Shown here: one piece after another, positions 4,557 through 40,549 of the stretch
Layout of the letters: each line of letters opens with the position of its first letter
How positions within the stretch are numbered: position 1 is the stretch's first letter
NCBI GenBank assembly: GCA_964421635.1
Contig: CAYQWZ010000003.1
Span: forward strand, 1,712-65,711
Length of the DNA: 64,000 nucleotides
Reading direction: 5' to 3'
From: an uncultured Candidatus Saccharibacteria bacterium
GTDB taxonomy: Bacteria; Patescibacteriota; UBA1384; CAILIB01; JAUSJZ01
Made by a program: the position numbers and the translations under genes
Notes under the pieces: generated by a model
Told to the model about the DNA's origin: nothing
The model's database searches: none
Seen by the model: only the letters and a program-made list of their open reading frames with translations

Positions 4557-4570
4557 GTGGGTTTAGACAT

Positions 4571-4595
4571 AAAAAAGGGACGGCCAGTGGCCGTC
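4571..4595 (-). terminator. Intrinsic terminator for the minus-strand gene ending at 4626
   Basis: Hairpin GACGGCC-agt-GGCCGTC preceded on the plus strand by aaaaaa, giving a U-tract on the minus-strand transcript. Confidence 0.5.
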
Positions 4596-4625
4596 TCTTG
4601 GGGTTCTCTCCTGATATCAGAGCTG

Positions 4626-5429: not shown

Positions 5430-5523
5430 GTCCCTCCTCCTTCGTGCAACACGAAGTCGCAACCAGAGAATACAAAATTTACTACTCCGAGTCAATAGAA
5501 AGGCTATAAAACTGTAGGATTAA

Positions 5524-7481: not shown

Positions 7482-7549
7482 ATCTTCTATATTCTCTCTT
7501 ATCGAAGGATGCAAAACAAGCCAACTAAAAAACCGCCCGGTTCGGACGG

Positions 7550-8622: not shown

Positions 8623-8745
8623 AAAAAATATTTAATTACTGAATCAATTGAAGCATGTTTAAAAAATTGAAGAAAGTATAATTTTTTGTGTGTCAAAAAA
8701 TGCGATATACTAATAGCGGCTACTAGCCAAGAGAAGGAGGCTGCA

Positions 8746-10257
8746 ATGGCAGCACAGATAGCATCCAGTGGCGCTCAAGTCATTGCGGTGCACGGATACA
8801 CACCTGAACAAACTGCGACCGCTTTAGCTATGATCTCGCGTACTACTTACCCAATACTAAAAGTATTGGCAGAAGTTACTGGGGGCAAAGCTCTAGAATT
8901 CTTTGAGAAATATTTTGTTAACTATGGTCATGCTTCCATTGCCGATATGGCCACGATAGTGTTTGTTTGTGAAGGTATTTCTCAGATTAGCGCTTGGGAG
9001 CTTTGGTTTGAATATTTAGCTGGTGGGCAAGAAAAATCGACTCGGTATGGAGATTTCGGTAATAAGTCGGCTATTACCATACCTCCAGAGATTATACTAG
9101 CCGGAAAAGAAGACACATATATGAGAATTGCTGAAGGATTGCTTGTTCAATATCGTTTTTGGCTTGAAACAGTCTTTGAGCGTTATAGAACGAGCATTCC
9201 AAAGCCAGACGGAATGAGCGACAGACAGTACGAGAGTACTCTCAGGGCGCGCGCTTTCGATGTTGCTCGTTACTGGCTGTTTGGTGGAATTAAGACTACT
9301 GTTGCTCAAGTAATGAGCATTCGTATTTTGGAACGGCAGCTTTGTCGTATGATGGCTTCACCTTATTCTGAGGTGCGAAAGCTGGCGGAGCAGATTCGAG
9401 TGGCTACTATGGAGGTTCCCCCACACACTCCTGAAGGAATGGAGAGTGTTTACACTGAGCCCGTGGCTGCTTCGTTAGTCAGACATATTGAAGCCAACCA
9501 ATTCCTGATCAACCTAGGAAACAAGCGTTATCGATGCGCCGAGCCATATGATAGAGGCTTTGATTATCAAGACTTGAGCTTGGTCGAATCGACCTTCTTA
9601 TATGATTGTGATCCGTTGGTGCTGCAGGCTTCTTTGCTTGTTTACGAAGGGGCAACTGTGCCACTAAGTTACATTATGAAACAGGTTGCGCAAGAGAGTC
9701 GAAGCAGTGTTGAAGCGATGATTCACTTCTATCTTCAAGATAGGGGGCCGCACGATGAACTGCCTTTGGCCATGGCGGCTGCCCGCGAGTGTATGTTTGA
9801 AGTAAGACTTGATCGCGGAGCAGCTCGAGACTTTCATCGACATCGGGCTGGGGTGCAGCTACATCAACGCATTGGTGGGCATCTTGGCTTTGCTATACCC
9901 GATGTTGTGGTTCAGATGGGTCTTGATGATAGGTGGGCTCACACTATGAGAGAGACAATTAAGTTAGTAGACCAACTAAGAGGAACTTTGTTTAATATGT
10001 TTGCTGGCCAGCGTTTGGACTACGGAGCAGACTATCTTTACCCGTTTGCTTGTCGGCAGGCTAGCATTTACGCAGGTGATACAAGGGCGATGACTTATCT
10101 TTGTGAATTGCGCACCAAGCCTGCAGGCCACTTCTCTTACCGCGAAGCTGCTTGGATGATGTGGCAGCAGATGTGCGAAAGGTTCCCTTGGATGGAATCT
10201 GAGGGTCGGGCTATTCCCTTCGCTCCTGACTCTGAAATTGATATCTTTCAGCGGTAG
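8746..10257 (+). CDS. thyX: ThyX-like (flavin-dependent thymidylate synthase family) protein with two tandem ThyX-like domains
   Basis: Start chosen at the ATG preceded by GAAGGAGG (6-nt spacer). The N-terminal half has a ThyX-like block (VIAVHGYTPEQTATALAMISRTTY; GHASIADMATIVFVCEGISQISAWELW...STRY) but lacks the RHR motif. The C-terminal half has MFEVRLDRGAARDFHRHRAGVQLHQR, where RHR is retained. Confidence 0.55.
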   Translation: MAAQIASSGAQVIAVHGYTPEQTATALAMISRTTYPILKVLAEVTGGKALEFFEKYFVNYGHASIADMATIVFVCEGISQISAWELWFEYLAGGQEKSTRYGDFGNKSAITIPPEIILAGKEDTYMRIAEGLLVQYRFWLETVFERYRTSIPKPDGMSDRQYESTLRARAFDVARYWLFGGIKTTVAQVMSIRILERQLCRMMASPYSEVRKLAEQIRVATMEVPPHTPEGMESVYTEPVAASLVRHIEANQFLINLGNKRYRCAEPYDRGFDYQDLSLVESTFLYDCDPLVLQASLLVYEGATVPLSYIMKQVAQESRSSVEAMIHFYLQDRGPHDELPLAMAAARECMFEVRLDRGAARDFHRHRAGVQLHQRIGGHLGFAIPDVVVQMGLDDRWAHTMRETIKLVDQLRGTLFNMFAGQRLDYGADYLYPFACRQASIYAGDTRAMTYLCELRTKPAGHFSYREAAWMMWQQMCERFPWMESEGRAIPFAPDSEIDIFQR

Positions 10258-12996: not shown

Positions 12997-13824
12997 TTAT
13001 TTGCTAGGGCGACGGACAGTAATTTCAATGCCGCGTTTAGAGCTTTTCTCTTCGCTGGTCGAATCTTTAGATTTTGAATTTGATGATTCAGACAGAGCTT
13101 TGGTATGTTTATGAGTTTTTGGTGGCTCCAAGCTTGAAGCGTGAACGACATCTGTCTTAGAGCGATTAACTAGAACTTGTTGGAAGATGCCGAAAATGGT
13201 TGTTACTACCCAGTATAAAACAACACCCGCGTTTACTTTTTGGGCAATCATAAAGGTCATAAAAGCGAAGAAGTACATAATTCCCATGCCCTGAGTTTTC
13301 TGTCCGCGCTTCTTGTTGACCGCCATAGTGGCTAAAATTTGAATGAACTGGAAGCCAGCGGCCAGCACAGGCAGAATATAAGTGGTGTCGACTTGAGATA
13401 AATTTATGCCGAATAAAAATTGATTAATAAACTCTGGCTGCGGCACAAATGAGTACAGTTGAGACATAGTCTCTGGGGCGAATCCTCCTTGCAGCACACG
13501 ATATAAAATAATAAGGATTGGTAGCTGAATAAGCATTGGCAGACAAGAACCAAACGGGCTGATATTGTTTTTTTGGTAGAGCTCCATGGTAGCTTTGGCC
13601 TGCTCTTGTTGATCTTTGTACTCTTTGCGGATAGTTTCAATTTCGGGCTGTAAGACCTGCAGTTTCTTCTGGTTTTCAAGGGCGTGACGGTTGGGAATAA
13701 GCAAAATAAATCTGATTATCAAAGTAACTACAACAATAGCTAAAGCAGAGCTGTGTCCCGGCATAACAGCAATTAAAAAGACCAGTAGGTTGAAGAACGG
13801 AATGTAAATAAACTGTTTTAACAT
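12997..13824 (-). CDS. yidC: Membrane protein insertase YidC/Oxa1 family (short form)
   Basis: Conserved core LPMLIQLPILIILYRVL plus five TM helices; preceded by yidD and rnpA. Confidence 0.85.
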   Translation of the reverse strand: MLKQFIYIPFFNLLVFLIAVMPGHSSALAIVVVTLIIRFILLIPNRHALENQKKLQVLQPEIETIRKEYKDQQEQAKATMELYQKNNISPFGSCLPMLIQLPILIILYRVLQGGFAPETMSQLYSFVPQPEFINQFLFGINLSQVDTTYILPVLAAGFQFIQILATMAVNKKRGQKTQGMGIMYFFAFMTFMIAQKVNAGVVLYWVVTTIFGIFQQVLVNRSKTDVVHASSLEPPKTHKHTKALSESSNSKSKDSTSEEKSSKRGIEITVRRPSK

Positions 13825-15166: not shown

Positions 15167-15199
15167 GCGGCCGCGTTGTACGCGGCCGCTTTTCTTTTA
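15167..15199 (+). terminator. Strong intrinsic terminator (GCGGCCGCG-ttgta-CGCGGCCGC followed by ttttctttt)
   Basis: Read directly. It overlaps the stop codon of the convergent minus-strand gene ending at 15197. Confidence 0.7.
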
Positions 15200-17377
15200 C
15201 CAAATATTCCAGATGTCGTCGATATAGTCTAAAGAGTAGTCTATAACTGCTACAAAAGTGTCATACATAAAATCAAGTGGATCCATTGAGATATAGTCGA
15301 GTGGCTCATTAAAGTATTCCTTTTCAGGGCTAGGTTTATATAAGTAGTCTATGTTGGTAGCCGGGTCACTATAAACCACAGGGTCTGGTTCGAGATTAAA
15401 GAAATCTGTTAGAAATGGTTCTTCATATGTTGGTGCATATTCCGGTAATTCTGTTATTTCTTGAAGATCAAAAGCAGTTATCTCTTCAGTAAAAATATTT
15501 TCATCTGGACTCCAATCATTTATTTCGGTAAACCATTTATAATCATCTCCTACTGGTTTAAATGTCATTTCTGGCTCGGACACTATCTCGCTGTATTCAT
15601 CTTCAAACACCGAGCTGGTTTCAGTTTCCGGAATGCTTGTTGTTGGTTCTGAATTTGTACTTTGAGTTGCAGAGGTTCCTTGTTCGTTGCCACTCTCTTC
15701 ACTTTGATCTTCAGATTCTGATTTTGAATCGGTATTTTCAGCTGTCGACATAGTAGTTGCATCTGTTTTACTAGGAGGATAATTTTCAAATTCATCGGCT
15801 AAGGCAATGAAGTCATTGTCTGTATGATTGATTTTAGCAATCTGTTTTACTACCACACCCCAGCGAGGCAGGTCCTTTAATTCTGACGAGGTTAAATTAG
15901 ATGTGTTTAAATCTAATTCGATATCTTTAACATTGCCGTAATTAACATAAAAGGTCGCCAGAGCTCCTCCACCCGTCATTTCTTCAAATTCTCTGTTTTC
16001 GGCTCCTTCTTCTAAAGACATTAGGGCCCACGGTTCGTGGTTATTGCTACCATAACCTACATCATTCCAAGGAATAGAAGCTCTATAAACAGCGAACTTA
16101 GAAACTGGAGCGTCTTCGACGCTTATTCCCTCCCCGATTTCTCCAAGTTTAGGAAAATAGTCTTTGATTGGCAGAACAACCCGATATCCCTCTTTTTCCG
16201 ATCCTTCTATAACAGAATTAGAGGCAAAAAAGTCCCAGCCACTAGCTAATAAATTACCGTGATAGCCAGTCGGGCACCATTGACCAAAGTAGTAAGAATA
16301 GTTACCATCCATTCCCAGAAGCGCCAAGTTAGTATCGGTAGAACCCTCCTTACTCTCGTACTGTCCGTTTCCATCTTTACGATTGTATCTAACCCAGGTC
16401 TCATCACCGTGGTACCCATCAGCTCCTGAAACAGAAATTTCGTAAGGACCTATCGGTTTAGCAATTTCAGCCAACCACCAATAAGGGTGTCCATCTGTGT
16501 CGGTAAAGTCATGAATTTTGTCTGGGGGGATTGGATTTTTTTCATCTCCTTTACCTTCGACAATGCTTACTTTGGCATTAAGAGGGCCTTTAAACTTCTT
16601 TAACCCAGCTTTTTCGTCTATTATCCAAATATCAGACAGGCTAGTTTTGTGAAAAATCTCGTCGGTTGGATGAATATAACCAGCTAAGGGAATATCGGTT
16701 ACTATAATATTTTTGCCCTCGTGTTTATAGTCGATTAAAGCCTCTACTATGTCAGTAGTACTTCTAATACAACCAGCTGTGAAATTGATAAGGTTGTCAT
16801 CACCTGTGCTGTGAATCCCTATATGTCGACAATTGTTTTTTTCTGAATCTGTCTCAAGGCCGCAAAGCGAACTACCTTCGTCTACGGGTGTCCCTTCTAG
16901 ATCGATAAAGAACGGTCCAAAGGAGCCCTTTCTTGCTATTCCGTCGTTATAGGGGATAAATGTGCCATTGTGATTGGTTCCAGGGTTTCCATTTTCGTCT
17001 ACAGCATCTTGGCGATTGGTCCAAGCCTGTCCCATTTTGTACACACCAAGAGGGGTCATTCCTGTGAGGGATTCTTCGTTTGTAAAATAAGATTCTTCAC
17101 CAATATTTTCAAAGGTTGCGTTGGCTAATACAGCAGGAGCATTAATTATGACTACTCCATTTTCATTATAGGCAGTTAGTGTATGTTTAGGATTGCTTTT
17201 GTTTACATCTACCACAACCACCTCAATGTTATAATCAATATTTTCACAAACAGAGGAATCAAAAACATCGGCTGATGGTCTGACTAGTACATACTTAAAT
17301 AAAATAAATACACAGAGAGCTATTACGACACCCAAAACAGAGTAAAGTAACAGCCTCGAATTAATCCCTCTTTTCAT
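15197..17377 (-). CDS. Secreted/membrane-anchored protein with an L,D-transpeptidase (YkuD)-like catalytic domain and an acidic S/E/T-rich region
   Basis: N-terminal TM helix LLLYSVLGVVIALCVFILF. Catalytic-like motif HIGIHSTGDDNLINFTAGCIRS matches the H...(S/T)xGC(I/V)R pattern of YkuD domains. Low-complexity acidic stretch in the C-terminal half. Confidence 0.55.
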   Translation of the reverse strand: MKRGINSRLLLYSVLGVVIALCVFILFKYVLVRPSADVFDSSVCENIDYNIEVVVVDVNKSNPKHTLTAYNENGVVIINAPAVLANATFENIGEESYFTNEESLTGMTPLGVYKMGQAWTNRQDAVDENGNPGTNHNGTFIPYNDGIARKGSFGPFFIDLEGTPVDEGSSLCGLETDSEKNNCRHIGIHSTGDDNLINFTAGCIRSTTDIVEALIDYKHEGKNIIVTDIPLAGYIHPTDEIFHKTSLSDIWIIDEKAGLKKFKGPLNAKVSIVEGKGDEKNPIPPDKIHDFTDTDGHPYWWLAEIAKPIGPYEISVSGADGYHGDETWVRYNRKDGNGQYESKEGSTDTNLALLGMDGNYSYYFGQWCPTGYHGNLLASGWDFFASNSVIEGSEKEGYRVVLPIKDYFPKLGEIGEGISVEDAPVSKFAVYRASIPWNDVGYGSNNHEPWALMSLEEGAENREFEEMTGGGALATFYVNYGNVKDIELDLNTSNLTSSELKDLPRWGVVVKQIAKINHTDNDFIALADEFENYPPSKTDATTMSTAENTDSKSESEDQSEESGNEQGTSATQSTNSEPTTSIPETETSSVFEDEYSEIVSEPEMTFKPVGDDYKWFTEINDWSPDENIFTEEITAFDLQEITELPEYAPTYEEPFLTDFFNLEPDPVVYSDPATNIDYLYKPSPEKEYFNEPLDYISMDPLDFMYDTFVAVIDYSLDYIDDIWNIW

Positions 17378-17431: not shown

Positions 17432-20400
17432 TTACCATGCAATATGGATTACATCCCAGAAGTCAGGGGAGGTGCAGATGCCGTAATTCTTCGGATCACC
17501 AGTAGCGTTTGAGTTACAGGCTCCTGAACGATAGCGCAAATTGAGAGCGTAAATTTGGTCAGCGTATTGGCTGTCTTCTTGATATAGGTCATGATTTTGT
17601 ACAGAAGTTTCGATTCCCTGAACCTTATTGGCGTCATCGGCCGACTCGTTAATGCGGTGAATTAATACTTGAGTAGGATAAAAATCGGAAGTGTAGTATT
17701 CAGCCCCGCGCTCTTCTCCCATAAAAAGGTCAGTTACCAAATTAATCACCTTGCCGCGCGCCGCCTCTTTGAATCCGTGGAGTTTTTGCACTTCATTTGT
17801 CGGATCAAATTCGCCGAAATAGGTACCCTTTAATTTACCAATATCATTCAGCGTCTCGGCCGCTGGCCACTGAGTGTACGGCACATTGCCCGTGCTCGGG
17901 TCGAAAGGTGGGGAGAACTCTCCCACCTTACCCACAAAAGGATAATAGCCGTCGGCGGTGGCTTTGGTAGTTATTCTAGTTTTGCCAAAGCCAAAGATTG
18001 TGACTAACACAAAGATGGCTAAGCTGACGAAGAACATTGGGCCGGTGCCAATTATTAAGGCGGTTAAAACTAAACTTAGTGCACCCGTAATTGTGCCTGG
18101 TGGTAAACCGATAGCGGTTTCAATTTTAGCAATCTCTTTGCCAAAAATTAAGTCTACTACATAAATTCCTAGCTCAATAGCCGCGTTAACCATTTGCGTT
18201 TTGAGCATGGCTATCTGTTCAGCACTCTGTTTTAATTTTACGGCTTGACTGTATGAATCGTAAGTTTTGTAGAAATTGTATGAAAGCTGGTAGGCATGCG
18301 CCAGTTTACCAGCTTGAATTCCCAGAATTTGTTCACCAAAGTAGAATGCTCGACCAAGCAGCCAGTTGGTATCGTAAAGCTCTGATAATCCTTTTACACC
18401 TACTCCTGAAATTGAGAAGGATTGATCGTTGCCGTTAAGCGCAAAGCCAAACACACCGGCCAAGGTGCCATCAACTAAGCCTAGGTCTTTAAATAGGGCG
18501 GAGCCGAACAGATCGTCTTCAAAACCAGAGAGACGGACTAATCCTTGTTCCGTTAGAAGCTCATTAATATTAGCGCTGTTGCCCTGAATCATTTCAATAG
18601 TGGCCTTAATGGTTTGCTGTTCTGTCAGCCAGCCCAACCCTTGACTGTCTAAATCACTGCGGAACTGCTTGGCCAAAACATTGGAGCTAATATAGGCAAT
18701 AGCGTTTGTTCTCTCTTCAGGCGTTCCTTCGAATAAAATTCGAGATAAGCCAGGCGCTACTAATCCTTTTTGATCGAGTAGCTTCGATAAACCAAAGTCC
18801 ATAGAGGCGTAGCCGAACTCTTTGCCAATGTAATCCCAAGAAGTTTGGGCGACCATTTGAGTGCTCTTGGTGGCGGCAGCGCGGGAGCTATCTGTCTGTA
18901 CAGCCGCTTTTATGCTGTCTAGGGTGGCTTGGTCTAGTCGCTCGTCAGCGGTGTCGTAGCTGGCATCGTTATTTGTTTGTGCCACTTCAGAGTCTGGTTC
19001 TTCAACCACATTCTCATTAGCTGTTTCGGCGTCACCACCTTCAAAGTTTTGTTGTAGCTCGTTTTCGGTGTCAGTGCGTTTATTATCTAAACTTAGCTCA
19101 GCGCCAGCCGCCACCGCCTGCAACACTAGCTGCTCTACTTCATTAGCTAATCCTTCTTCCTCGGTTAGGGCGGGAGCATGGCTGCTGGTTTGCAAAACAT
19201 TGCGAACTCTATTAATTTCACCATCGACATCGACGCCATCTTCGCGTGCTTCTGTAATAGATCTATTGGCGGTGCTTGCGAAGGATACATAACTGTCTTT
19301 AGTAGACAGAGCCTCAATATTTAAATCGGCGATAGCCATAACGGCGTTGATAGGAACTTGGAAGAACGGCCAAACTTCGCCTCCAATTTGTTGCTGAATG
19401 TACTGGCCAGCGATATCTCTAAACTCGCTTAAGGCGCCTACCATAGCTGCAGTAGGATTAACTCCTGCTAACTCGAAGTGACCTGAATCGCGATTATATA
19501 AAGCGCCAAACAGCACTCGTTGCATTACTCTCTTGGCATTAATGCTACGGTCATAATCATTAGTGTTAGTATCTGACATATTGATACCGAAAGCGCGGCC
19601 AGCTAATAATCGGACTCCTTGGTCGAATAGAATTTCATCTGCCTGTTTTGGTTTAGCAATGAGGTCGGCCATGGTGCCCGCTTCAAATCCTAAAGATTTA
19701 TCAATATTGAAGCTGAAGGCCTCAGACATAATTTTATAAACCCGAGCTAAACTGGCTGAGTCATACTCAGACTGTTTAAAGAAATCGATGAGAAAATTAC
19801 GATTGCTGCTGTTAGAAATTAAACCATCAAAAATTGGATCCTCAACACCTAGTCTTTGGAGTATGGCTGCAAACGCCTCGCCACCAAACTCTGTGGCTCC
19901 CTGCTCTCCAGCCATAGATACAAGCTGAGCGGTACTGATTTTTCCTTCAATCCACTTTCGAGTTGGCCCGTTATTCTCTTCATCTAAAATGCCTAGTCGG
20001 CGGTCAATGCCGTTCAGTCTAATTTCGTAGTAGTTATTTGATAAGCTTCCACCGAAGGCAGCGTCAATACTGCTGTTGATTAATCCGTCGTACTGATGAG
20101 CTAGAGCAAAATAATCATCTAGTAGATAGAAAATTCCTCGGTCAGCGCCTTCAGATTCAACAAAAATCTCTCGTGCTTCAAGATAAGATAACCTCATAGA
20201 AGTGGTCATCTCGTACATCTCTGTTTCAATGTCGTTCATCTTTTTGGTAATAGCTTTTGCTTCATCAGGAACAGGAATACTAAAAGCAGCCATTATTTTC
20301 TTCTGCCAGTCTCTCTTTTCAAGATCGTTCATAGAACCGGAGCCTTTCAACATCTCTTCTCTGGTGCCCTTAAATTCGCCTGTTTGTAATCCTAATATCT

Positions 20401-23400
20401 TTTCAATTCTGGCCTGCCCCATGCTCTCTACCGGATTATCTGTTAAGGTGAATCCTTTTGGCAGATCAAGTTCAATGCCCAGTTTGCCTAAAGTGGCGCT
20501 GATTATTGCCTGCTGCCGGTTCTCATCGCGCTCCGCGTCTGTGTTACCGTCAGGATAAATTACAGAATTGAAAAAATCACTTGGCAGCTCTAAGGTTTGC
20601 TCTAACTTACGACCACCAACACCCACCAAAGTTTTAACAGGATCACCCAAAATAAAGTCAGCGATATCGTCGGCCGTTAGCCAGTCAGGAATTTTGACAC
20701 CTAGCTTCTGAGCCAGTGAGCTAATGGTGCGAGCGGTAATATGCTCGCGACCCTTTTCGATTAGGCTTTGTCGGTCTGTTTCTCCGCCATCATTTCGAGA
20801 CGAGCCAACAGCGAAGAATAAATTATCGGCAGTCTGGTCGCCTTCGTAGAAAAGATAGAGTGCCTCTTTTGGTAAATCTAGGGTGTCAGCTAATTTTTGA
20901 ATTCCCAAATGCACCAAAATGTTATCTATATTGCCTCCAGCTAAAGCGCCTTGTGCCGAACTGATCAGCAATTTGTCAGAGCCAAAAAGTATTCGTAAAG
21001 GATTCAGAGGGACATCTTCTAGTGAACCAACATTCGTATTTAAACTCTCCAAACTAATCTCGCTTGGAATGTGCGAGCTGTAAGCAACAGAATCGCCCTC
21101 CATAATTTCCATCACCGCTCGTTCGATATCTGAGGCGGCGCCTAATATCTGATTGACGGAATCGAAACTGTCTGAATCCTCAACAAAATCAATAATGCTA
21201 AAGAGGTCATCTTTAACATCGCGCACAGTGTAGCTGCTCTCTAGGTTGGTTAAATTGTCACCTAGCTCTACCACGCCCGCAATAGTGCGTTTGCTGTTGT
21301 TAATTATGTTTTGTACCTGACCCTGTACTCCATCTGGGAAATCGCTGACGCGCCGCTCAATGATGCGCAAGGAGTCATAAATTTTTTGATAGCGATTAAC
21401 ATAGAAAAAGATATCAGAGGCTAATTCAGTGTCTTCCAGCTGTTCGTATTCTGGGCTGTCTTGTACTTTTTCTATTAAAAGGCGGCGACCGATGCGTCTA
21501 AATTCGTGGGCTGGTTTATCACTCAAAAAGACATCGGCGTAGAAGTTGTCTTTTGGATTAGAGGCTACGAAATTTGTGTCACCGCTAACATTTGTAACAC
21601 TTGTTCTAAACTCTTTTTGGTCGTGGCTAGGTAGAGTTTCAGACAGGTACCAAACGCCAGCTATTTTGAAAGCGCTCTCGGCGTTGCTGCCCCCAATAAT
21701 ATCGAACATCGTGCCAGCCGGAAAGCCGAAAACTCGGTCGCGTTGCTGTGAAGTACCATCAGGGTTTTGACCATAGTCGCGGTAGTCATGCAGTGTTTGT
21801 AAAGAGTCATTCAAAATATTTAAAGATGCATTATACAGGGCTATTTTTTTCTGCTCTTCTTGAGTGAGATTGTTGGCAGTGATTATTGAGCCGTTGCCAG
21901 GGACATTTAAGCTAGCGATTAATCCTTCAATGGTGCCAGTCAAAGTTTCTAAAGAAGAGATTTCGGACGCTGCATTGCTTAAGAAACTTGTGCGAGCATC
22001 TTTGTTAGAAGGATTATATGTAATCATGCCTTCAAGCGGATCATAGGTTGGCCCAGGATTTTCTGCTTGGTAGGCCTTAGCCTTAAGCCGTTCAGCTATT
22101 TGTACAACACTGTTAGCAATATCTCCTTGTCCGGCATCCTGTAAATATTTTTTTAGAATAAACAGTGAGCCTGACTGGCCAGCCCCTCCTTCGTTCTCTC
22201 TATTGGTCAGCTGCTGCACTATAAATAGAGGGCTGGCTGGAGTATAATCTTCAGCTGCATTTGCAGATTCGACATGGTAGCGACCTAAATTAGCATCCCA
22301 GACTTTTTGGCCGGCCGCCTGTTTGAACTCAGCCACATTGCCAGAGTTAATAAAGCGCAAAGTAGTATTGGCTGGTAGTCGCAGTCGCTCATCAATTATG
22401 ATGGCATTTTGAGCGGCAAAAACAGTATTGTATCGAGCCTCTCCTATAGCGGCTTTGACTTCATTAATATCATTTGAAGCGAAGGATCTCTCTGGTACGG
22501 GCAAGCGCTCTTCAATGTATCCCCATCCTAAATGCTCCTTAAACCCATTCACTGAGTCGTAGTTATTTAGGGCGTAACTTTTGATGCCCAAGAGGTCTGC
22601 TAGCCGCTGTTTTCCAATGTTCGTAAGTAAATCGTTAGGACTATCTCCTTCAGGCAGTCTATCGAGCCCAATCTGTTTAGCTACAAACTGACGGCCAGTG
22701 TACTCTTCAATATCGGCCAAAGAGTTGGCGTTGCGAATTGCTTCAGGGTCAACATTAAGAGCTCCTCCCAAAACAATAGCACCAAAATCTTTAATAGTGT
22801 CGCCAAAATTAAACTGTGAAATATCTTGGCCGTCGAGCAGAGTTCCCAGCAGCTGGCCACCGACAAACTTGGCTAAATCTTCTGTACTCAAGCTGTCGAG
22901 GGTGCGGCCATCAAAATTGAATTCACCTAAAATTTCTTCTGCATCTAAAAGCTCAAAAATGCTATTAAAAGATAGATCTTGCAGCATTTCATGAATAGCC
23001 AACTCGGGTAGAGGTTCGGCGGCAATTCCGTCATCTGATTGCCAAGCGACTTTAATGTTTATTGGTTTTTGGAACTTATAGCTGTTAGAGCTGCTGAATA
23101 TTCCGGTTTTTCGAATGCGGGTGGTGACTCGAATGCGATCAATCTCTGAAATATCAATAGCCTGTGAAACGGCGTGCGAGCCTTCATTAAACTTAATTGG
23201 CACATCTTGGCCGTTGATTTTTTGAGTTGAAAAATCGCGGCTAGTTAAATCTACGAAGTGAGGGCTACGGGTAGTCTCTAAGCTTTTATCCCATTTACCG
23301 TTACCGTTGGTGTCAATGTATTCTTCGCCTTCATTCTGCTCGTAAATTCCGTCACCGTCATCATCTAAAATTGGTTCTGCTCGGTTCTGCTGCTCCTTGC

Positions 23401-24316
23401 CTTTCTCAATAAACTGAGTTAATCTTTCAACTTTCAAGTATTCTCGGCCGGCACCTCCATCGCTGCGTGGTTTGAGTAGGTAGTCAAGGGCTAAAATTAC
23501 CCGTACATCAACGCGCGGAGGGTCGCAGTATTGGTCTTTATCGCGGGCACCATTAATGAATTCGTTGTCTTCGCTAGCGTTCCAATTAAGACAATCCCCG
23601 TTGTTCTCACCTGTAATAGCCACTAAATCTCGGCTGTGCTCAAATACCAAGCGCCGCTCATAAGTAGTTAGAGGATTCAGCCGTTCTTGTAGATCAGAAT
23701 TAATTGTATAGAAGTTTGGTAGGTATTTTGTTAATACTTCAGCCGTCAGATCTTCTTCAAGAGAAGATGAAATATTATTGCTCTCATCATTATTAATATT
23801 TTCTAGTTTTTGAGCATCTTCTCTTGGAACATAAGCATAAGTTCGGCTATTGTCGTCTTGGCTAACACTTTCATCTGGGATAAAAGATTGATTTTCAATC
23901 TTATCAATAACCTCTCGTTTATTCAGAAAAATAACAACATCATTGTCGTAAGCTGTTTCAAAACTGTTGTGTTCATCAATGACAAGGGTTAGGGCATAGC
24001 TATCAATGTCGTCGGGAAATCCTTCTCCAGGTGTGTAGACAAGGTCGTGGTCGTTGTTTGTAATAAAAGATCGACTCAATGGCGCTTCTAAATCATTTGC
24101 TCTTGGTATATCGCCTAAATCAGAAGGATTGGAACTTTCTTGATTCAAAAGCTCAATATCTTCCCCACTTCCTTCAAAGTCGCTTTCATCTGATGAGTTG
24201 GGTAATTCATCAGGATCAATTTGGGCATAAACAGTCAGAGTACTTAAAGGTAAAAATAAAGATAGTGAAGCAATTATATTTAAGCAGATGAATTGTTTAA
24301 ATAATCCTTTTTTCAT
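17432..24316 (-). CDS. Giant surface/envelope protein (2294 aa) with N-terminal signal peptide and C-terminal TM segments
   Basis: Uninterrupted 6.9-kb ORF. Signal peptide MKKGLFKQFICLNIIASLSLFLPLSTLTVYAQ. Two hydrophobic helices near the C-terminus (LSLVLTALIIGTGPMFFVSLAIFVLVTIFGFG). The start overlaps the upstream gene by 4 nt. Confidence 0.7.
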   Translation of the reverse strand: MKKGLFKQFICLNIIASLSLFLPLSTLTVYAQIDPDELPNSSDESDFEGSGEDIELLNQESSNPSDLGDIPRANDLEAPLSRSFITNNDHDLVYTPGEGFPDDIDSYALTLVIDEHNSFETAYDNDVVIFLNKREVIDKIENQSFIPDESVSQDDNSRTYAYVPREDAQKLENINNDESNNISSSLEEDLTAEVLTKYLPNFYTINSDLQERLNPLTTYERRLVFEHSRDLVAITGENNGDCLNWNASEDNEFINGARDKDQYCDPPRVDVRVILALDYLLKPRSDGGAGREYLKVERLTQFIEKGKEQQNRAEPILDDDGDGIYEQNEGEEYIDTNGNGKWDKSLETTRSPHFVDLTSRDFSTQKINGQDVPIKFNEGSHAVSQAIDISEIDRIRVTTRIRKTGIFSSSNSYKFQKPINIKVAWQSDDGIAAEPLPELAIHEMLQDLSFNSIFELLDAEEILGEFNFDGRTLDSLSTEDLAKFVGGQLLGTLLDGQDISQFNFGDTIKDFGAIVLGGALNVDPEAIRNANSLADIEEYTGRQFVAKQIGLDRLPEGDSPNDLLTNIGKQRLADLLGIKSYALNNYDSVNGFKEHLGWGYIEERLPVPERSFASNDINEVKAAIGEARYNTVFAAQNAIIIDERLRLPANTTLRFINSGNVAEFKQAAGQKVWDANLGRYHVESANAAEDYTPASPLFIVQQLTNRENEGGAGQSGSLFILKKYLQDAGQGDIANSVVQIAERLKAKAYQAENPGPTYDPLEGMITYNPSNKDARTSFLSNAASEISSLETLTGTIEGLIASLNVPGNGSIITANNLTQEEQKKIALYNASLNILNDSLQTLHDYRDYGQNPDGTSQQRDRVFGFPAGTMFDIIGGSNAESAFKIAGVWYLSETLPSHDQKEFRTSVTNVSGDTNFVASNPKDNFYADVFLSDKPAHEFRRIGRRLLIEKVQDSPEYEQLEDTELASDIFFYVNRYQKIYDSLRIIERRVSDFPDGVQGQVQNIINNSKRTIAGVVELGDNLTNLESSYTVRDVKDDLFSIIDFVEDSDSFDSVNQILGAASDIERAVMEIMEGDSVAYSSHIPSEISLESLNTNVGSLEDVPLNPLRILFGSDKLLISSAQGALAGGNIDNILVHLGIQKLADTLDLPKEALYLFYEGDQTADNLFFAVGSSRNDGGETDRQSLIEKGREHITARTISSLAQKLGVKIPDWLTADDIADFILGDPVKTLVGVGGRKLEQTLELPSDFFNSVIYPDGNTDAERDENRQQAIISATLGKLGIELDLPKGFTLTDNPVESMGQARIEKILGLQTGEFKGTREEMLKGSGSMNDLEKRDWQKKIMAAFSIPVPDEAKAITKKMNDIETEMYEMTTSMRLSYLEAREIFVESEGADRGIFYLLDDYFALAHQYDGLINSSIDAAFGGSLSNNYYEIRLNGIDRRLGILDEENNGPTRKWIEGKISTAQLVSMAGEQGATEFGGEAFAAILQRLGVEDPIFDGLISNSSNRNFLIDFFKQSEYDSASLARVYKIMSEAFSFNIDKSLGFEAGTMADLIAKPKQADEILFDQGVRLLAGRAFGINMSDTNTNDYDRSINAKRVMQRVLFGALYNRDSGHFELAGVNPTAAMVGALSEFRDIAGQYIQQQIGGEVWPFFQVPINAVMAIADLNIEALSTKDSYVSFASTANRSITEAREDGVDVDGEINRVRNVLQTSSHAPALTEEEGLANEVEQLVLQAVAAGAELSLDNKRTDTENELQQNFEGGDAETANENVVEEPDSEVAQTNNDASYDTADERLDQATLDSIKAAVQTDSSRAAATKSTQMVAQTSWDYIGKEFGYASMDFGLSKLLDQKGLVAPGLSRILFEGTPEERTNAIAYISSNVLAKQFRSDLDSQGLGWLTEQQTIKATIEMIQGNSANINELLTEQGLVRLSGFEDDLFGSALFKDLGLVDGTLAGVFGFALNGNDQSFSISGVGVKGLSELYDTNWLLGRAFYFGEQILGIQAGKLAHAYQLSYNFYKTYDSYSQAVKLKQSAEQIAMLKTQMVNAAIELGIYVVDLIFGKEIAKIETAIGLPPGTITGALSLVLTALIIGTGPMFFVSLAIFVLVTIFGFGKTRITTKATADGYYPFVGKVGEFSPPFDPSTGNVPYTQWPAAETLNDIGKLKGTYFGEFDPTNEVQKLHGFKEAARGKVINLVTDLFMGEERGAEYYTSDFYPTQVLIHRINESADDANKVQGIETSVQNHDLYQEDSQYADQIYALNLRYRSGACNSNATGDPKNYGICTSPDFWDVIHIAW

Positions 24317-27265: not shown

Positions 27266-27679
27266 TTATTTTTCTACAACTTCAAAACTAATTGACTCAA
27301 CTGGTGCGTTTATTTTTTGTAACCAGTTTTTTGCGTCTACTTTTATACTATCCTGTTGCTTAAAATATTGTGAGGGTATTTCTAACCTTAAACTATTTAA
27401 ATCAACGAAATATAGGCTGTAATTGTCTGCAAAGTGGGGTAAGAAATCTAGCCACGGGTTATTTTTAATTTTTTCAGAGTAAGGCTGTGCTATCTCGTCA
27501 TTATCACTAGGTGCTGATTCAGCAACATCTGGTTGATTATCTCCAAAGTCAGTTATCTCAGTATCTGATTTTGTTGTTGGTGCTTTAATAGCTTTGTTAT
27601 TTGATGAGATCATAAAAAATCCAATTACGATTAAGACAATAATAAGTACGACAATTATTATTTTGGTTCTATTATCCAT
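27266..27679 (-). CDS. Small membrane-anchored hypothetical protein (137 aa)
   Basis: N-terminal TM helix IIIVVLIIVLIVIGFFMI; overlaps the upstream gene by 22 nt, suggesting translational coupling. Confidence 0.45.
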   Translation of the reverse strand: MDNRTKIIIVVLIIVLIVIGFFMISSNNKAIKAPTTKSDTEITDFGDNQPDVAESAPSDNDEIAQPYSEKIKNNPWLDFLPHFADNYSLYFVDLNSLRLEIPSQYFKQQDSIKVDAKNWLQKINAPVESISFEVVEK

Positions 27680-29130
27680 AATCCTTTTTTATTATTACTA
27701 ACGATGTTAGTTTTTGCTGCTGTGATATTTCTTTTGTAAGAATCAGCTAGAAAAATAATGTTACGGCTGTTATCTATGGCAAATAAAGTTACATAATGTC
27801 CACCACTAGTAAAATCTCCACTTTTCATTAAGGCGATGACTGGTTTGCCTTGGGCTAGGGCGCTAAGTGATGCTTGCCAACCAGCACTGGTTACTTTTAA
27901 TCCAAACAAACTTCCGACGCTGTTAAGCATTGCGCCACTTGTGCCGCTACCACAAAGTCGCCACCTACCTCTGGTTGATAGTTCAGCAGTAACTCCTGGG
28001 TCAAATTTTCCACCAAATTCTTGATTAATAGAGCTATTAAAGCTGTTTGTTGAAAGAACTCCTCTTTCAACATAATAAGCGATGGCATTAGACAGTGATG
28101 TTGGGCCACAGCCAGAAGAAGAAATATTGGCACCACAACTTACAATGGATGCGTTTGTATTACCTAATTGACCTGCGCTGTTTACACCTTTATAAGGCGT
28201 ATTTGCCCAAGGGCCTTGGTGCTGAGTAAAGCGTGGAAAGTCCGCAAAGGTTCTATAAAAACCATCAGCTTCTTTTGTTGTTCCTCCTTTGTAAACTTTT
28301 CCATTAAAGGTTACGCTATCTGGTATTACAATAGAAGAAGGATTTTGCAGAGGTCTATTTGTAAAGTTAATATTACCTCCAATTTGAGTTAAATCACCAG
28401 TAAAAGCATTTCCTTGATAAACTGTGACGCCTGAAACCTCACAAGCGTATAGGTCGTTATCTACCCCTTGGCAATTCATTCGACTGCGAGCTGCCTGTTC
28501 ATCGCGCGTGCCAGTAAAGGCTAAATCGAGTCTCTTTGTCATATCCTTGCCAGTCGACAACATCGTTTGGTAATAGCGTTCGTTAATATTAGTAGCAGTA
28601 CCAAAGGTATCAATAACAGGAGCTGGTTGGTCGGTGTAACCGGGAATGTGTAGCCAGTAAGCAGTGCCTGTCTGTACTTGTGCACTGTCGCTGGTTTTTA
28701 TTGGCCACTTAGCCCCGTTTTTCCACATTGTTGGGTGATTAACTGCAATGCCACCAACTGCGTAATTATTATTGGAGAAAGCTGAGACTAGCTCGTAGTT
28801 AGCATCGTCTTGATATTTCTTCCGATCTTCATTAGAGAGGCTACAATGATTGATAATTTGTTGAGTAGTTTTATTGCGGTAGGCATAATTTACACCAGAG
28901 AAGGTTCCGCAACCACCCTCTATTTTGTCTGAAACCTTCCACCCAGGAGTATAAAAAGTGACAAAAACTGTTTCATCAGATGAGATAGAACGAAGACCGG
29001 CGCTACTAAATATTCCTCCCGTGTTTAAAAATCTTAGCCACCCAAAAGGGCTGAAAATAAGACCAACAAATATACCGGCAATAGCTATTATTACCATAAA
29101 GACGATAATATATGATAAATATTTGTTCAT
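27658..29130 (-). CDS. Membrane-anchored protein with a C-terminal peptidase C39-like (papain-fold) domain
   Basis: N-terminal TM helix. C-terminal SCGANISSSGCGPTSLSNAIAYY ... GGHYVTLFAIDN resembles the CGP(A/T)SL and downstream His motifs of Peptidase_C39-like domains. Confidence 0.45.
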   Translation of the reverse strand: MNKYLSYIIVFMVIIAIAGIFVGLIFSPFGWLRFLNTGGIFSSAGLRSISSDETVFVTFYTPGWKVSDKIEGGCGTFSGVNYAYRNKTTQQIINHCSLSNEDRKKYQDDANYELVSAFSNNNYAVGGIAVNHPTMWKNGAKWPIKTSDSAQVQTGTAYWLHIPGYTDQPAPVIDTFGTATNINERYYQTMLSTGKDMTKRLDLAFTGTRDEQAARSRMNCQGVDNDLYACEVSGVTVYQGNAFTGDLTQIGGNINFTNRPLQNPSSIVIPDSVTFNGKVYKGGTTKEADGFYRTFADFPRFTQHQGPWANTPYKGVNSAGQLGNTNASIVSCGANISSSGCGPTSLSNAIAYYVERGVLSTNSFNSSINQEFGGKFDPGVTAELSTRGRWRLCGSGTSGAMLNSVGSLFGLKVTSAGWQASLSALAQGKPVIALMKSGDFTSGGHYVTLFAIDNSRNIIFLADSYKRNITAAKTNIVSNNKKGLWIIEPK

Positions 29131-29798
29131 TTTATAAGTGGTGCTCTGTTGCTTCTAACAAATTGAACAGCTGCTTTCTCAGCTTCGGTTGCAGGAAATT
29201 CCATCCAGTTACAACCAGCTCTATCTGCTAGACCATCCCCATCATTAAGAAAGGATGTTATCTGATCTTCTAGCTGACTTTTAGATGGTATTCCGGCATA
29301 AGCCGCATGAATATGTTCGTTTCCACACCAATCCCTTCTTGTTTTACACGAACGATACCAAGCTGCCCACCCTTGAGAGCGCATAGCTCGTACAATCTTT
29401 TCAATATCTCCATGAGATTTGCCACGAACAGATACATCAATAGCAGCTGTGTATGTTGAACCGGGCTCGGCAGCATGGTAGCCATGACTAGCTTTGGCAT
29501 TGCCTCGCCCTTGAATAACTGTCCAGCTCATGCCAGTTAGCTCTACTGCTTTTCTGTAAGCAGATGACGCAACTGGATGCACATGTTTAATTGAACCTTG
29601 ACCATCATTGGCTATTAAAATATCTCCTCCTGTGTACACAACTGGTGTTGAATAATCAGAGCCTTCTCGCGAGCCTAAAAAAGGAACAGCGTTAATTGCT
29701 CCTTGCATGGCCAAACCAAAAGCGGCGCCGCCACCAAAAAGAATTATTATTAGGCCAAAAGCCATAATCCATATTGATGCGTCCCCTCTCTTTTGCAT
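29127..29798 (-). CDS. Secreted hypothetical protein (223 aa), possible cell-wall hydrolase
   Basis: N-terminal TM/signal segment, His-rich motifs (IKHVHP; NEHIH), GC-richer than its neighbours. 4-nt overlaps on both sides indicate operon membership. Function not assignable by eye. Confidence 0.45.
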   Translation of the reverse strand: MQKRGDASIWIMAFGLIIILFGGGAAFGLAMQGAINAVPFLGSREGSDYSTPVVYTGGDILIANDGQGSIKHVHPVASSAYRKAVELTGMSWTVIQGRGNAKASHGYHAAEPGSTYTAAIDVSVRGKSHGDIEKIVRAMRSQGWAAWYRSCKTRRDWCGNEHIHAAYAGIPSKSQLEDQITSFLNDGDGLADRAGCNWMEFPATEAEKAAVQFVRSNRAPLIK

Positions 29799-31619
29799 TT
29801 AATTAATGTTTTTGTTGCGCAAGGCTAGCAGCTCTTTAGGGTCAGAAGTAATAATTTGATTCTCTGTGTAGCTGGCAATAACCTTAATAGCTACATGATT
29901 TTGCCCAGCAAAGAATAATCCTTCACCAACATTAGCGTTTAGCAGCAGATATTTTTCTTGTTCCGTCAGGTTAAAAACCTCCGCTACTTTTTCAATAGAA
30001 CTGGAGGATTGCTTAAGTAGAAGCTGCATGGAAGAGTTGGCCACAATTGGTTTGCCGTACTTGTTTTCTAAAAAGTCCTCCACATCTTGCGAAATTATGG
30101 TTAAGCCAAGATAGTACTTGCGGGCGCGTTTGGCTAAACTTTGCAGATATTTGGCGGAATCTTCGTATTGCATCATTAACCAGGCTTCATCAACAATCAT
30201 CAGGCGGCGCTTGAGTTTACCACGAATTACATTCCAAACATAGTTTAAAATAACGAACATAGCGACCGGCCGTAAGGATTCTTCAAGGTCGCGTACTGAG
30301 AAAACGACAAATCCTCCTTTGAGCTCGAAGTTGGTTGGTTGGTTGAATAAACCGGCGAAAGAGCCTTCAGTATATTTAGTTAAGCGTTGAATTAAGCTGT
30401 CGGAGTTACGAATGTTTTGCAGCACAGAAACGAAATCACCTAAAATTGGCGGTTCATTTTTGTGGCTACTTGGGTCTTCGGTGATGTCTTTCAGGGCGTA
30501 AGTTTCTCGTAAGGCGGTGTCGATGATACCGTCCTCTTCAGGGGAGACACCGCCGACCATAATGCGAATTAGACTTGAAAGGGAAGCGATATTAGATTTT
30601 AAGACATCCTCATCTTCGCCCCGCTCATTCTCAATTACTGGCAAATCAAAAGGATTAATTCTTTGCGCTGAACTCAAGGAGATATTCAGGAAAGATCCGC
30701 CGACGGCTTCAGCTAAGCGCTGATACTCGTTTTCTGGGTCAACCACAATGATGTCAGTGCCAAGCATTAAATAGCGAAGTGCTTCGAGTTTAATAGCGAA
30801 AGATTTACCACCACCAGATTTAGCCAGCACAATTGAGTTAGCGTTTTCCAAGTCGAAGCGATCAAACAGAATTAGGGAGTCGTTGTGACGGTTTAATCCG
30901 TAAAGAATTCCTTTGTCTTCTGTCAGTTCAGCAGATGTGAAAGGAAAAGTAGTAGAGAGTGAGCCGGTGTCGAGATTGCGCAAAACCCCCAGCTCGTCGT
31001 GGCCAATTGGCAGGGTCGAGTTGAATCCTTGCTCCATTTGCAGGGTCGATTCCTTAGTGTAAATAAGGGTGCCACCTAAAGCTGACTCCAGCTGGTTCGA
31101 AATTTCTTCCAGATCTTTTAAGGATTTTGAAGAAATGGTGAAATAAAGGGCGAAGTGGAATAGTTTGTTGTGACCTTGAGTCAGTGCATCTCGCATCTCG
31201 TCAATATCTTGCAGGGCGACATCTAATTTAGGGTCGCGCACTAATCCTTTTTCACGCTCAATTTGACGGGTAGATTCCAAGCGGCCAGTCTGCCGTTCTA
31301 ATTTATTTAGTACAGATGAAGTGTCTTGAGGATAAATAAACATAGATATGTCAATGGTGATATCAAAGTTTATTACAGGAGAGAGCCAGTTAGTGTTCAA
31401 GAAACGCGGATAATTATAGACGAACATTGTTTTAGTGTAGGTTTCGCCTAGCTGCAAGTAATTCGGTTTTATTATCATGCCAGAAGGAGAAATAATATCG
31501 CGCACCGAAGTTGTGCCGGCTGAGTAGGCCTGTTTAGCTTGGCGCTGCAAATCTCTCTCAGATGTTGTCTCTTCAGATTTTTTGCGTTTATTGAAACCGA
31601 AAGGTAATTTTAGAGCCAT
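29799..31619 (-). CDS. VirB4/TrbE/CagE-family type IV secretion ATPase (C-terminal two-thirds)
   Basis: Walker A AKSGGGKS, Walker B MIVDEAW, C-terminal RARKYYLGLTIISQDVEDF block, and an upstream CagE_TrbE_VirB-like region (YNYPRFLNTNWLSPV). Confidence 0.75.
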   Translation of the reverse strand: MALKLPFGFNKRKKSEETTSERDLQRQAKQAYSAGTTSVRDIISPSGMIIKPNYLQLGETYTKTMFVYNYPRFLNTNWLSPVINFDITIDISMFIYPQDTSSVLNKLERQTGRLESTRQIEREKGLVRDPKLDVALQDIDEMRDALTQGHNKLFHFALYFTISSKSLKDLEEISNQLESALGGTLIYTKESTLQMEQGFNSTLPIGHDELGVLRNLDTGSLSTTFPFTSAELTEDKGILYGLNRHNDSLILFDRFDLENANSIVLAKSGGGKSFAIKLEALRYLMLGTDIIVVDPENEYQRLAEAVGGSFLNISLSSAQRINPFDLPVIENERGEDEDVLKSNIASLSSLIRIMVGGVSPEEDGIIDTALRETYALKDITEDPSSHKNEPPILGDFVSVLQNIRNSDSLIQRLTKYTEGSFAGLFNQPTNFELKGGFVVFSVRDLEESLRPVAMFVILNYVWNVIRGKLKRRLMIVDEAWLMMQYEDSAKYLQSLAKRARKYYLGLTIISQDVEDFLENKYGKPIVANSSMQLLLKQSSSSIEKVAEVFNLTEQEKYLLLNANVGEGLFFAGQNHVAIKVIASYTENQIITSDPKELLALRNKNIN

Positions 31620-31621
31620 AA

Positions 31622-32593
31622 TTATTGTGGTTGATTAGGTTGGTTAGGATTAGGATTTGAATCTGGCGCTGCTGGTTCGGTTGGCGCCGTCGGTTCAGTC
31701 GGCTGGACTGGTGGTTCTGGTTCGGCCGGCGCGGTTGGTTTTTCAGCGAACTTCTGTGCTTCCTGAGGAACATCGGCTACTTCAATCTGGCTCATTACGC
31801 TGTCACTAGTCGTATCTAGTTTTATTTCATCCGAGCTGGCATCCAGATGCTGGGCCTCGTTTGGCTGATCGCCAACAATTAACTGTTCTTGTGGGCTAGC
31901 TTCTTTTTGCGAAGTATCTTTTGTAATAATCTGTTCTTTGGAAACAACTTCTGTTTGAATTTTCTCTAAATCAACCAGCCTTTCTGTATCTGAAATATCA
32001 GGATTATAAATGCCGTAGAAAAGCTCAATTAGCTGTTGAGTGTTAAGCGCTTCGATGCGAACGCCGAGCTGTGATAATCCACCCGCTACGGCGTTCGCCT
32101 GAGTGTTAAGCTCATCACGGTAGCGGTTAAAGCTTGACCGGCTAAGTGAAGGGGCAGCCTGTTTTTTGAATAAAGATAGCATTCCGCCAGAAGCGCCTTT
32201 AATAGAGGCACTTCTATAAGTCAAAACAATGAAGTAATGCTTTGACATAATATTGGCTACAGAAACTAGACTACGCATAAAATTGATGTAGTCTTGAGCG
32301 TGAATTTGGAGCAACTCGTTGTCTATCTGTTTTGTATGTCGCTCCATACCAATTAAATAAGGTTCTAAATCTAGCCGTAGCGACTTAATAATTATCTGGA
32401 TTGGAAAATCTAGGCTATTTAAAAATCCTTGATATTTAGCAATTATTGAGTTTTGCTCTAACTCGTTTTTTAAATCAAAGTTAATAGGTAATGCTTTAAG
32501 TACAACCGCTAAAGAGCCATCCTTCAGAATGGCTACACCTTCTTCAATGCCAGCAATGGGCAAATTAATTTGAGGGATATCTTTATTCATCAT
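31622..32593 (-). CDS. Protein resembling the N-terminal domain of VirB4-family ATPases, encoded separately, with a Pro/Gln-rich tail
   Basis: IAGIEEGVAILKDGSLAVVLKALPINFDLK is typical of VirB4/TraC N-termini. It ends TAA, then 2 nt, then the ATG of the ATPase ORF in a different frame. Confidence 0.5.
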   Translation of the reverse strand: MMNKDIPQINLPIAGIEEGVAILKDGSLAVVLKALPINFDLKNELEQNSIIAKYQGFLNSLDFPIQIIIKSLRLDLEPYLIGMERHTKQIDNELLQIHAQDYINFMRSLVSVANIMSKHYFIVLTYRSASIKGASGGMLSLFKKQAAPSLSRSSFNRYRDELNTQANAVAGGLSQLGVRIEALNTQQLIELFYGIYNPDISDTERLVDLEKIQTEVVSKEQIITKDTSQKEASPQEQLIVGDQPNEAQHLDASSDEIKLDTTSDSVMSQIEVADVPQEAQKFAEKPTAPAEPEPPVQPTEPTAPTEPAAPDSNPNPNQPNQPQ

Positions 32594-33011
32594 CTAGTTC
32601 TGAATAACCATGACTATCTACCACTTCGGCCACATTAGCTAAATCTTTTTTAGAATATATTTTTTTAGCAACCTTCTTATTACTTTTCTTTTGCGCTTTA
32701 TCGGCTCTGATAATTGGCTTACCTGAGGATTGATACTGTGACCATCCTCGCTCTTTGGGAGTAATAATGTATTTAAACAATGAGGATAAAAACTTAGGCA
32801 TTGGCTCACCCTGAACTTTAATAGCTGCTAGGGCGAAAGCAAAAATACCAATTGCGCCCGCAATAACCATGCCTAAAAATCCGCCAATTTTAATTAGCGC
32901 CAGATAGGCAATTAACCCACCCAAAGCCAAATAACCAAATTGGATAAGCGTAAACTTACCTACAATTCGATCCTCCATATCAAGATTTTGGGGGACTTTA
33001 AACTGTGGCAT
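32583..33011 (-). CDS. PrgI/VirB3-like small membrane protein (2 TM helices)
   Basis: 142 aa with two adjacent hydrophobic helices (FGYLALGGLIAYLALIKIGGFLGMVIAGAIGIFAFALAAI). It sits immediately upstream of the VirB4-like genes and overlaps the next gene by 11 nt. Confidence 0.5.
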   Translation of the reverse strand: MPQFKVPQNLDMEDRIVGKFTLIQFGYLALGGLIAYLALIKIGGFLGMVIAGAIGIFAFALAAIKVQGEPMPKFLSSLFKYIITPKERGWSQYQSSGKPIIRADKAQKKSNKKVAKKIYSKKDLANVAEVVDSHGYSELDDE

Positions 33012-40472: not shown

Positions 40473-40549
40473 GGGTGCGTAGCTCAGTTGGTTAGAGCTT
40501 TCGGCTTATATCCGAACGGTCCCAGGTTCAAGTCCTGGCGCACCCACCA
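40473..40549 (+). tRNA. tRNA-Ile (anticodon UAU)
   Basis: Manual fold: acceptor GGGTGCG, D-arm GCTCAGTTGGTTAGAGC, anticodon stem TTCGG/CCGAA, loop CTTATAT (anticodon TAT), T-arm CCAGGTTCAAGTCCTGG, CCA encoded. Confidence 0.8.

Follow-up and report, generated by a model that had tools for sequence, protein, structure and literature searches.

The window analyzed here is a stretch of 64,000 nucleotides (nt) from an uncultured Candidatus Saccharibacteria bacterium (contig CAYQWZ010000003.1 of GenBank assembly GCA_964421635.1, positions 1,712 to 65,711 of the forward strand). It carries a predicted type IV secretion system (T4SS) operon with two adjacent open reading frames (ORFs), ORF1 and ORF2, that are related to successive parts of the ATPase VirB4. 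The coordinates of the two genes, and the TAA stop, two nucleotides and ATG in a different frame that separate them, are as given in a preliminary description of this DNA, and both genes lie on the minus strand. That description left three options for the pair: a genuine split gene, a recent frameshift pseudogenisation, or a programmed frameshift site. The junction reads CAA CCA CAA TAA TT ATG GCT, which puts ORF2 in the -1 (+2) frame with respect to ORF1. The features of the locus are listed in Table 1.

Table 1. Features of the split virB4 locus, its operon and its surroundings; positions count from the first letter of the window, and lengths of proteins are in amino acids (aa).
Feature	Position	Strand	Description or basis
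PrgI/VirB3-like membrane protein, 142 aa, first operon gene	32583..33011	minus	Pfam PrgI 3.5e-9, above cut-off
ORF1	31622..32593	minus	323 aa, TAA stop; ORF list
Folded alpha/beta domain of ORF1, residues ~10-215	31949..32566	minus	AlphaFold (AF2) model, conserved columns; predicted homologue of VirB4 N-terminal subdomain
Disordered Pro/Gln/Asn/Glu-rich tail of ORF1, residues 216-323	31625..31948	minus	Predicted local distance difference test (pLDDT), length variation
Junction TAA-TT-ATG (ORF1 stop, 2-nt spacer, ORF2 start)	31617..31624	minus	Sequence
ORF2	29799..31619	minus	606 aa, ATG start; ORF list
ATPase C-terminal domain of ORF2, residues 231-591	29847..30929	minus	phmmer vs PDB
223-aa and 490-aa bitopic membrane proteins, downstream genes	27658..29798	minus	N-terminal hydrophobic anchors; junctions 0 and -4 nt
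490-aa protein	27658..29130	minus	Pfam Peptidase_C39_2 6.9e-10
2,294-aa protein of the T4SS operon	17432..24316	minus	4-nt overlap with preceding gene
726-aa membrane-anchored protein	15197..17377	minus	YkuD L,D-transpeptidase domain
yidC	12997..13824	minus	
PilB/T2SSE-type ATPase	5524..7050	minus	
dnaA	3091..4515	minus	
523-aa protein	8686..10257	plus	Two ThyX (Thy1)-matching stretches
tRNA-Ile, anticodon TAT (UAU)	40473..40549	plus	

ORF2 is predicted to encode a VirB4-type ATPase made up of the latter part of the N-terminal region and the C-terminal ATPase domain. It matches the VirB4 profile NF045971 (conju_CD1110) with an E-value of 1.2e-114 (384.2 bits, cut-off 325), residues 30-578 covering profile positions 179-734 of 752, so that the first ~180 positions are missing. 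It falls under the cut-off for TIGR00929, TraC-F and VirB4_plasma. In Pfam, ORF2 matches P-loop_TraG (4.8e-30), AAA_10 and DUF87. The CagE/TrbE region that the preliminary description had placed ahead of the ATPase is sub-threshold in Pfam (E 0.0047, 17.3 bits vs a cut-off of 21), but the curated VirB4 profiles match the same region strongly.

The Walker A and B motifs ascribed to ORF2 are both present: AKSGGGKS at residues 266-273 (nt 30801..30824) and RLMIVDE at residues 472-478 (nt 30186..30206). They are unchanged in 30 homologues, with G269, G271, K272, S273, D477 and E478 invariant. In a phmmer search of PDB, the C-terminal domain matches 4ag5, the VirB4 C-terminal domain of Thermoanaerobacter pseudethanolicus (3.4e-48), and TrwK 7o41 (7e-8). 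The best 120 homologues listed are all 590-654 aa, down to 62% identity. The start codon of ORF2 is fixed by the Met-Ala-Leu-type N-terminus that is conserved among its homologues. The ORF2 chain lacks a complete VirB4 N-terminal domain, of which ORF1 encodes the rest.

ORF1 is assigned, from its matches, as a TrsD-like (PF26593, TraC-like) protein, the probable stand-alone counterpart of the first ~200 residues of VirB4. The peptide IAGIEEGVAILKDGSLAVVLKALPINFDLK, residues 13-42, and the Pro/Gln/Asn-rich C-terminal tail are both present as described before, and the VirB4-type character proposed for the N-terminal segment is borne out by profile and fold matches. Residues 16-135 match positions 11-130 of the CD1110 VirB4 profile (NCBIfam), and ORF1 also matches TIGR00929 at positions 18-147 and a mycoplasma VirB4 model at positions 108-235; all three models are matched at their beginnings only, with E-values from 1e-6 to 4e-3. 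PF26593 'TraC-like' is the precomputed annotation of the ORF1 product and of its listed homologues, and a local Pfam copy gives only TraC_F_IV, sub-threshold. An ORF1-family profile aligned by hhalign with pSK41 TrsD gives a probability of 93% and an E-value of 2.8e-7 over 177 columns, TrsD residues 32-216. Like the members of the TrsD/TraD family, ORF1 stands alone between a VirB3-like gene and a short virB4. The score of ORF2 on the CD1110 VirB4 equivalog and the 247 homologues of ORF1 at E <= 0.001 lie far beyond chance.

A sequence search of PDB with ORF1 returned a single chance-level match (E 0.83, an ice-binding protein). The link to VirB4 needed the profiles and a fold search. The AF2 model of ORF1, made from 48 sequences, has a pLDDT of ~85-97 across most of residues 10-205. 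When PDB was searched with this model, each of the top 14 matches was a TrwK/VirB4 chain of the R388 T4SS. From residue ~215 to the end the pLDDT is ~45-63, and the tail is predicted to be disordered. There are 247 homologues of ORF1 with E <= 0.001; every one of the best 120 of the 247 stands alone as a protein of 194-438 aa, down to 36% identity, and distant ones align with ~65% of the query only. Neither ORF1 nor ORF2 contains a hydrophobic segment.

The two proteins were compared with full-length VirB4, as the preliminary description had proposed, using the fused 830-aa VirB4 of Bacillus cereus plasmid pJ62_2 as reference. ORF1 aligns on residues ~31-223 (22% identity) and ORF2 on residues 219-826. 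They abut and together cover one complete protein with nothing duplicated, and thus are predicted to form one VirB4 architecture. The single-chain VirB4 proteins, namely TrwK of R388, the CD1110 family and the B. cereus protein, have the same domains in the same order as ORF1 and ORF2 joined end to end, and their ATPase motifs and fold are like those of ORF2. The difference is that here the chain is broken beyond the initial ~215 residues, with a separate start and stop for each piece.

Could ORF1 be an accessory protein that has no functional relation to VirB4 and resembles it incidentally? Its likeness to the VirB4 profiles is weak and it has no sequence match in PDB. Quinonero-Coronel et al. 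(2025; PMC12102498), in the passages that deal with TrsD, describe it as remotely homologous to the N-terminus of VirB4 and assign it no function. However, ORF1 matches N-terminal positions in three independent VirB4 models, its alignment with the fused VirB4 abuts the start of the ORF2 alignment, the leading fold matches are TrwK/VirB4 without exception, and ORF2-type proteins lack precisely that region. An incidental likeness is therefore very improbable.

With different frames and a distance of 2 nt, the pair looks like a single virB4 broken by a recent frameshift mutation or by a sequencing or assembly indel. The 141 nt spanning the junction are base-identical in contigs of two independently assembled European Nucleotide Archive (ENA) samples, and gene callers on both ENA assemblies also begin the next gene 2 nt past the ORF1 stop. 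A TAA five codons upstream of the ORF2 ATG closes the frame of ORF2, leaving an open upstream stretch of 15 nt. An indel that repaired the frame would thus be confined to ~10 nt free of homopolymers, and both halves are well conserved. Among the best 120 listed homologues of either half there is no fused protein.

The same split is found in related genomes, a comparison that the preliminary description had suggested. Eighty loci were fetched from one-genome-per-species assemblies of Patescibacteria (candidate phyla radiation, CPR), including Berkelbacteria, Saccharibacteria, Kazan, Paceibacterota, Nomurabacteria, Kaiserbacteria, Falkowbacteria and others. In 63 of the 80 loci the ATPase gene is immediately preceded by an ORF1-type gene, and a stop codon intervenes in 63/63. 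The stop-start spacing ranges from -14 to +497 nt with a median of 5 nt, and 41 of the 63 fall within -14 to +10 nt. There are 10 overlaps (-4, -8 and -14), 31 gaps of 1-8 nt, 13 of 11-40 nt, seven of 41-140 nt and two of ~450-500 nt. The relative frames are distributed 26/20/17, including the same frame with a stop between. What is conserved at the junction is adjacency only, not geometry. Beyond the domain, the tails of the ORF1-type proteins at the 63 loci measure 1-190 aa (median ~15), showing that the ORF1 tail is lineage-specific and variable in length.

The split is thus ancient and conserved, not recent. The lengths of the homologues, the 63 split loci with their varied spacings and frames, and the identical independent assemblies support a genuine split gene. 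The same evidence, together with the good conservation of both halves, rejects a sequencing error or a recent frameshift, to which we give practically no credence.

A full-length fused VirB4 could also arise by programmed -1 ribosomal frameshifting close to the stop of ORF1, and ORF2 is indeed in the required -1 frame. But the 15-nt open stretch before the ORF2 ATG holds neither a slippery heptamer (X XXY YYZ) nor a homopolymer, and the only slippery heptamers within ORF1 are ~800 nt upstream of the junction. The three frame relations among the CPR loci and the gaps of up to ~500 nt indicate that no recoding signal is conserved, and the ORF2 homologues retain their initiator Met-Ala-Leu N-terminus. 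With no slippery site in the overlap and a variable frame relation, programmed frameshifting is rejected as almost certainly wrong. The features of the junction and the survey of homologues together dispose of pseudogenisation, assembly indel and programmed frameshifting alike.

Pairs of the same layout occur outside the CPR, as found by a tblastn survey of plasmids with the ORF1 domain. Miltoncostaea oceani (Actinomycetota) has PrgI, an N gene of 337 aa and a DUF87 ATPase of 661 aa with a 66-nt gap; pJFP838A of Clostridium perfringens has PrgI, an N gene of 312 aa and a DUF87 ATPase of 641 aa with a 130-nt gap. On the Haloarcula pelagica plasmid NZ_CP126164 (locus L084), genes for 556 aa (3947-5617) and 761 aa (5614-7899) overlap by 4 nt. 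In Staphylococcus aureus pSK41, TrsC (135 aa), TrsD (227 aa) and TrsE (672 aa) follow one another, with 14 nt between TrsD and TrsE. ORF2 aligns to each short ATPase of these four records from near its N-terminus. The matching layout in distant lineages indicates that the break point is the same, and fused forms, as in B. cereus, exist too. In the Haloarcula pair, the TrsD-like domain is at the N-terminus of the 556-aa protein and the VirB4-like ATPase follows; both are annotated as hypothetical.

The closest plasmid parallel is TrsD plus TrsE (TraD plus TraE) of pGO1/pSK41, the pGO1 subclass of MPF-FATA. The order of a VirB3-like gene (TrsC/PrgI), a TrsD-like gene and a short virB4 is the same; the short VirB4 proteins are 606-672 aa, and genes for cell-wall hydrolases, here a candidate one, lie downstream. 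The junctions are tight in both, 14 nt in pSK41 and 2 nt in the present locus. ORF2 aligns with pSK41 TrsE from residue 4, with an identity of only ~24%. ORF1 differs from the 227-aa TrsD of pSK41 in its disordered tail of ~100 aa, which TrsD lacks, and the present locus is chromosomal, among housekeeping genes, whereas the pSK41 system is on a plasmid.

The pair is not an unusual find. The two-gene arrangement is the already published TrsD plus VirB4 pair, known from pGO1/pSK41-type plasmids and from Patescibacteria. As far as the TrsD passages of PMC12102498 go, no T4SS component was recovered more often in Patescibacteria than TrsD: there are 2,272 homologues, 1,664 of them associated with virB4, Gracilibacteria being a notable exception. 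The same source lists the TrsD homologue of Ca. Southlakia epibionticum ML1 as essential, and states that the T4SS of Patescibacteria tends to sit near dnaA and, citing Wang et al. (2023), is reportedly essential for epibiotic growth. The system it describes, with a chromosomal TrsD next to virB4 and PrgI/VirB3 and close to dnaA, is the same as that of the present locus, and nothing essential in its account distinguishes the two. The account also agrees with the loci examined here in that lineages of the Gracilibacteria type are without an adjacent TrsD. The term TrsD is absent from the main text of Guglielmini et al. (2014), and the statement on homology is therefore cited from PMC12102498. 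The passages of PMC12102498 on TrsD do not state explicitly that CPR VirB4 lacks exactly the TrsD-equivalent region.

Very probably, ORF1 and ORF2 are separately translated genes of the T4SS, where ORF1, of the TrsD family, would give the first alpha/beta subdomain of VirB4 in trans and ORF2 would give the rest, that is, the remaining N-terminal region and the hexameric P-loop ATPase domain. The position of the split is common to CPR, pSK41/pGO1-type staphylococcal plasmids, Clostridium, an actinomycete and haloarchaeal plasmids; the gene fission is old, or else the fusion elsewhere is the derived state. The two polypeptides would assemble non-covalently. In the R388 structure, VirB4 touches VirB3 at the membrane through its N-terminal domain. 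By this likeness, the TrsD-like subunit probably docks the ATPase on the PrgI/VirB3-like membrane protein, which would restore a whole VirB4 at the channel base. Ordinary operon packing would serve for expression, and the 2-nt spacing, like the other junctions, is compatible with translational coupling.

Several observations weigh against this two-gene VirB4, or against parts of it. On the TrsD/TraD model of staphylococcal plasmids, NF041427, ORF1 scores 31.7 bits (E 1.3e-7) against a cut-off of 200, indicating a remote relative of plasmid TrsD. The binding of ORF1 to ORF2 and to PrgI is proposed by likeness to R388. The translational coupling of ORF2 to ORF1, plausible from the geometry of the junction, is the weakest step, and the gaps of 100-500 nt in some loci indicate that a tight junction is not required. 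Finally, in 17 of the 80 CPR loci (Peregrinibacteria, Peribacteria and Gracilibacteria; L011-L015, L018-L021, L023, L024, L026, L027, L031, L033, L039 and L060), no ORF1-type gene was found within flanks of ~0.4-4 kb per side. After tblastn gave no match in these loci, they were searched with a hidden Markov model on both strands under genetic codes 11 and 25. The result suggests that the ATPase core may work without an adjacent TrsD, or that the gene is elsewhere.

Two of the 17 loci were inspected, L012 (3287-6019) and L023 (3275-5812). In both, the ATPase has a Lys/Glu/Ser-rich N-terminal extension of 230-260 aa that looks of low complexity, and the gene is divergent beside gyrA, outside any PrgI-TrsD operon. 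We consider it unlikely, though conceivable, that the splitting is functional rather than neutral: a tailed TrsD-like adaptor, dosed apart from the ATPase, could gate or tether assembly of the latter on PrgI/VirB3 in this growth-essential T4SS, and Peregrinibacteria and Gracilibacteria may substitute a long disordered N-terminal extension of the ATPase.

No Shine-Dalgarno core precedes the ATG of ORF2, as had been noted, and its absence was taken to be consistent with coupled reinitiation. In the window, 48 of 55 ORFs of at least 100 aa are without a 4-nt core in the 22 nt upstream of the start, so the absence before ORF2 is uninformative on reinitiation. The regions upstream of starts in the window are A/T-rich. 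The ORF1/ORF2 junction resembles every other junction of the tightly packed operon, which measure -11, 0, -4, -22, +1, 0 and -4 nt, and then +54 nt. The stop-start proximity of a coupled pair is found here in TAA-TT-ATG, as it is in the 41 closely spaced homologous loci.

A true split pair may also be expressed in another way, with ORF2 initiated de novo, independently of ORF1, on a leader that is A/U-rich and unstructured. This departs from the two-gene VirB4 set out above in the expression step only. Most genes of the window initiate without a Shine-Dalgarno sequence, including ones with long upstream spacers, several homologous loci have 20-500 nt between the pair, and the letters just before the ORF2 ATG are A/T-rich (CAATAATT). 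The clustering of spacings within -14 to +10 nt, the recurrent ATGA and TAAnATG typical of coupling, and an operon built throughout of 0-4 nt junctions or overlaps argue against it. Independent initiation is the less likely route, yet a real alternative for the expression step.

The operon is a predicted chromosomal Patescibacteria T4SS of the monoderm, MPF-FATA-like type. The PrgI/VirB3-like protein has two hydrophobic helices, with segments within residues 20-68, and its gene overlaps the start of ORF1 by 11 nt. The 490-aa protein is a candidate cell-wall hydrolase, possibly an analogue of VirB1 or of the TrsG-CHAP protein. Pfam identified no VirB6, VirB8 or VirD4 among the operon proteins, and the operon ORFs scanned showed neither a relaxase nor a coupling protein.

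Two putative cell-wall enzymes, the 726-aa and 490-aa proteins, flank the operon core, and neither is like the usual VirB1 lytic transglycosylase. The 2,294-aa protein has a signal-peptide-like N-terminus and a hydrophobic segment near residues 2071-2115, with zero Pfam matches; it may serve the T4SS at the cell surface or as an adhesin.

The gene dnaA is ~11-29 kb from the T4SS operon, which fits the near-origin placement given for Patescibacteria T4SS in the relevant passage of PMC12102498. Together with the PilB/T2SSE-type ATPase gene and yidC, it is found 2-14 kb past the 3′ (distal) end of the operon. The minimum of the cumulative GC skew is at ~28-30 kb, not at dnaA. Elsewhere in the window, the 523-aa protein with ThyX-matching stretches has about twice the usual length of ThyX. 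A tRNA-Ile(UAU) gene is also present; such a tRNA is uncommon in bacteria, where AUA is usually read by a lysidine-modified CAU tRNA.

The arrangement is in the literature already and holds no surprise. The sole increment is to make explicit that CPR VirB4 is without exactly the region supplied by TrsD, and that the TrsD-like domain has the fold of the TrwK N-terminus. The value of the present analysis lies mainly in annotation. The junction should not be flagged as a frameshift, pseudogene or recoding site, and the upstream 'hypothetical protein' would be better named a TrsD-like VirB4 N-terminal subunit. Knowing that the ATPase is probably made of two chains helps structural and genetic work on the T4SS of Patescibacteria.

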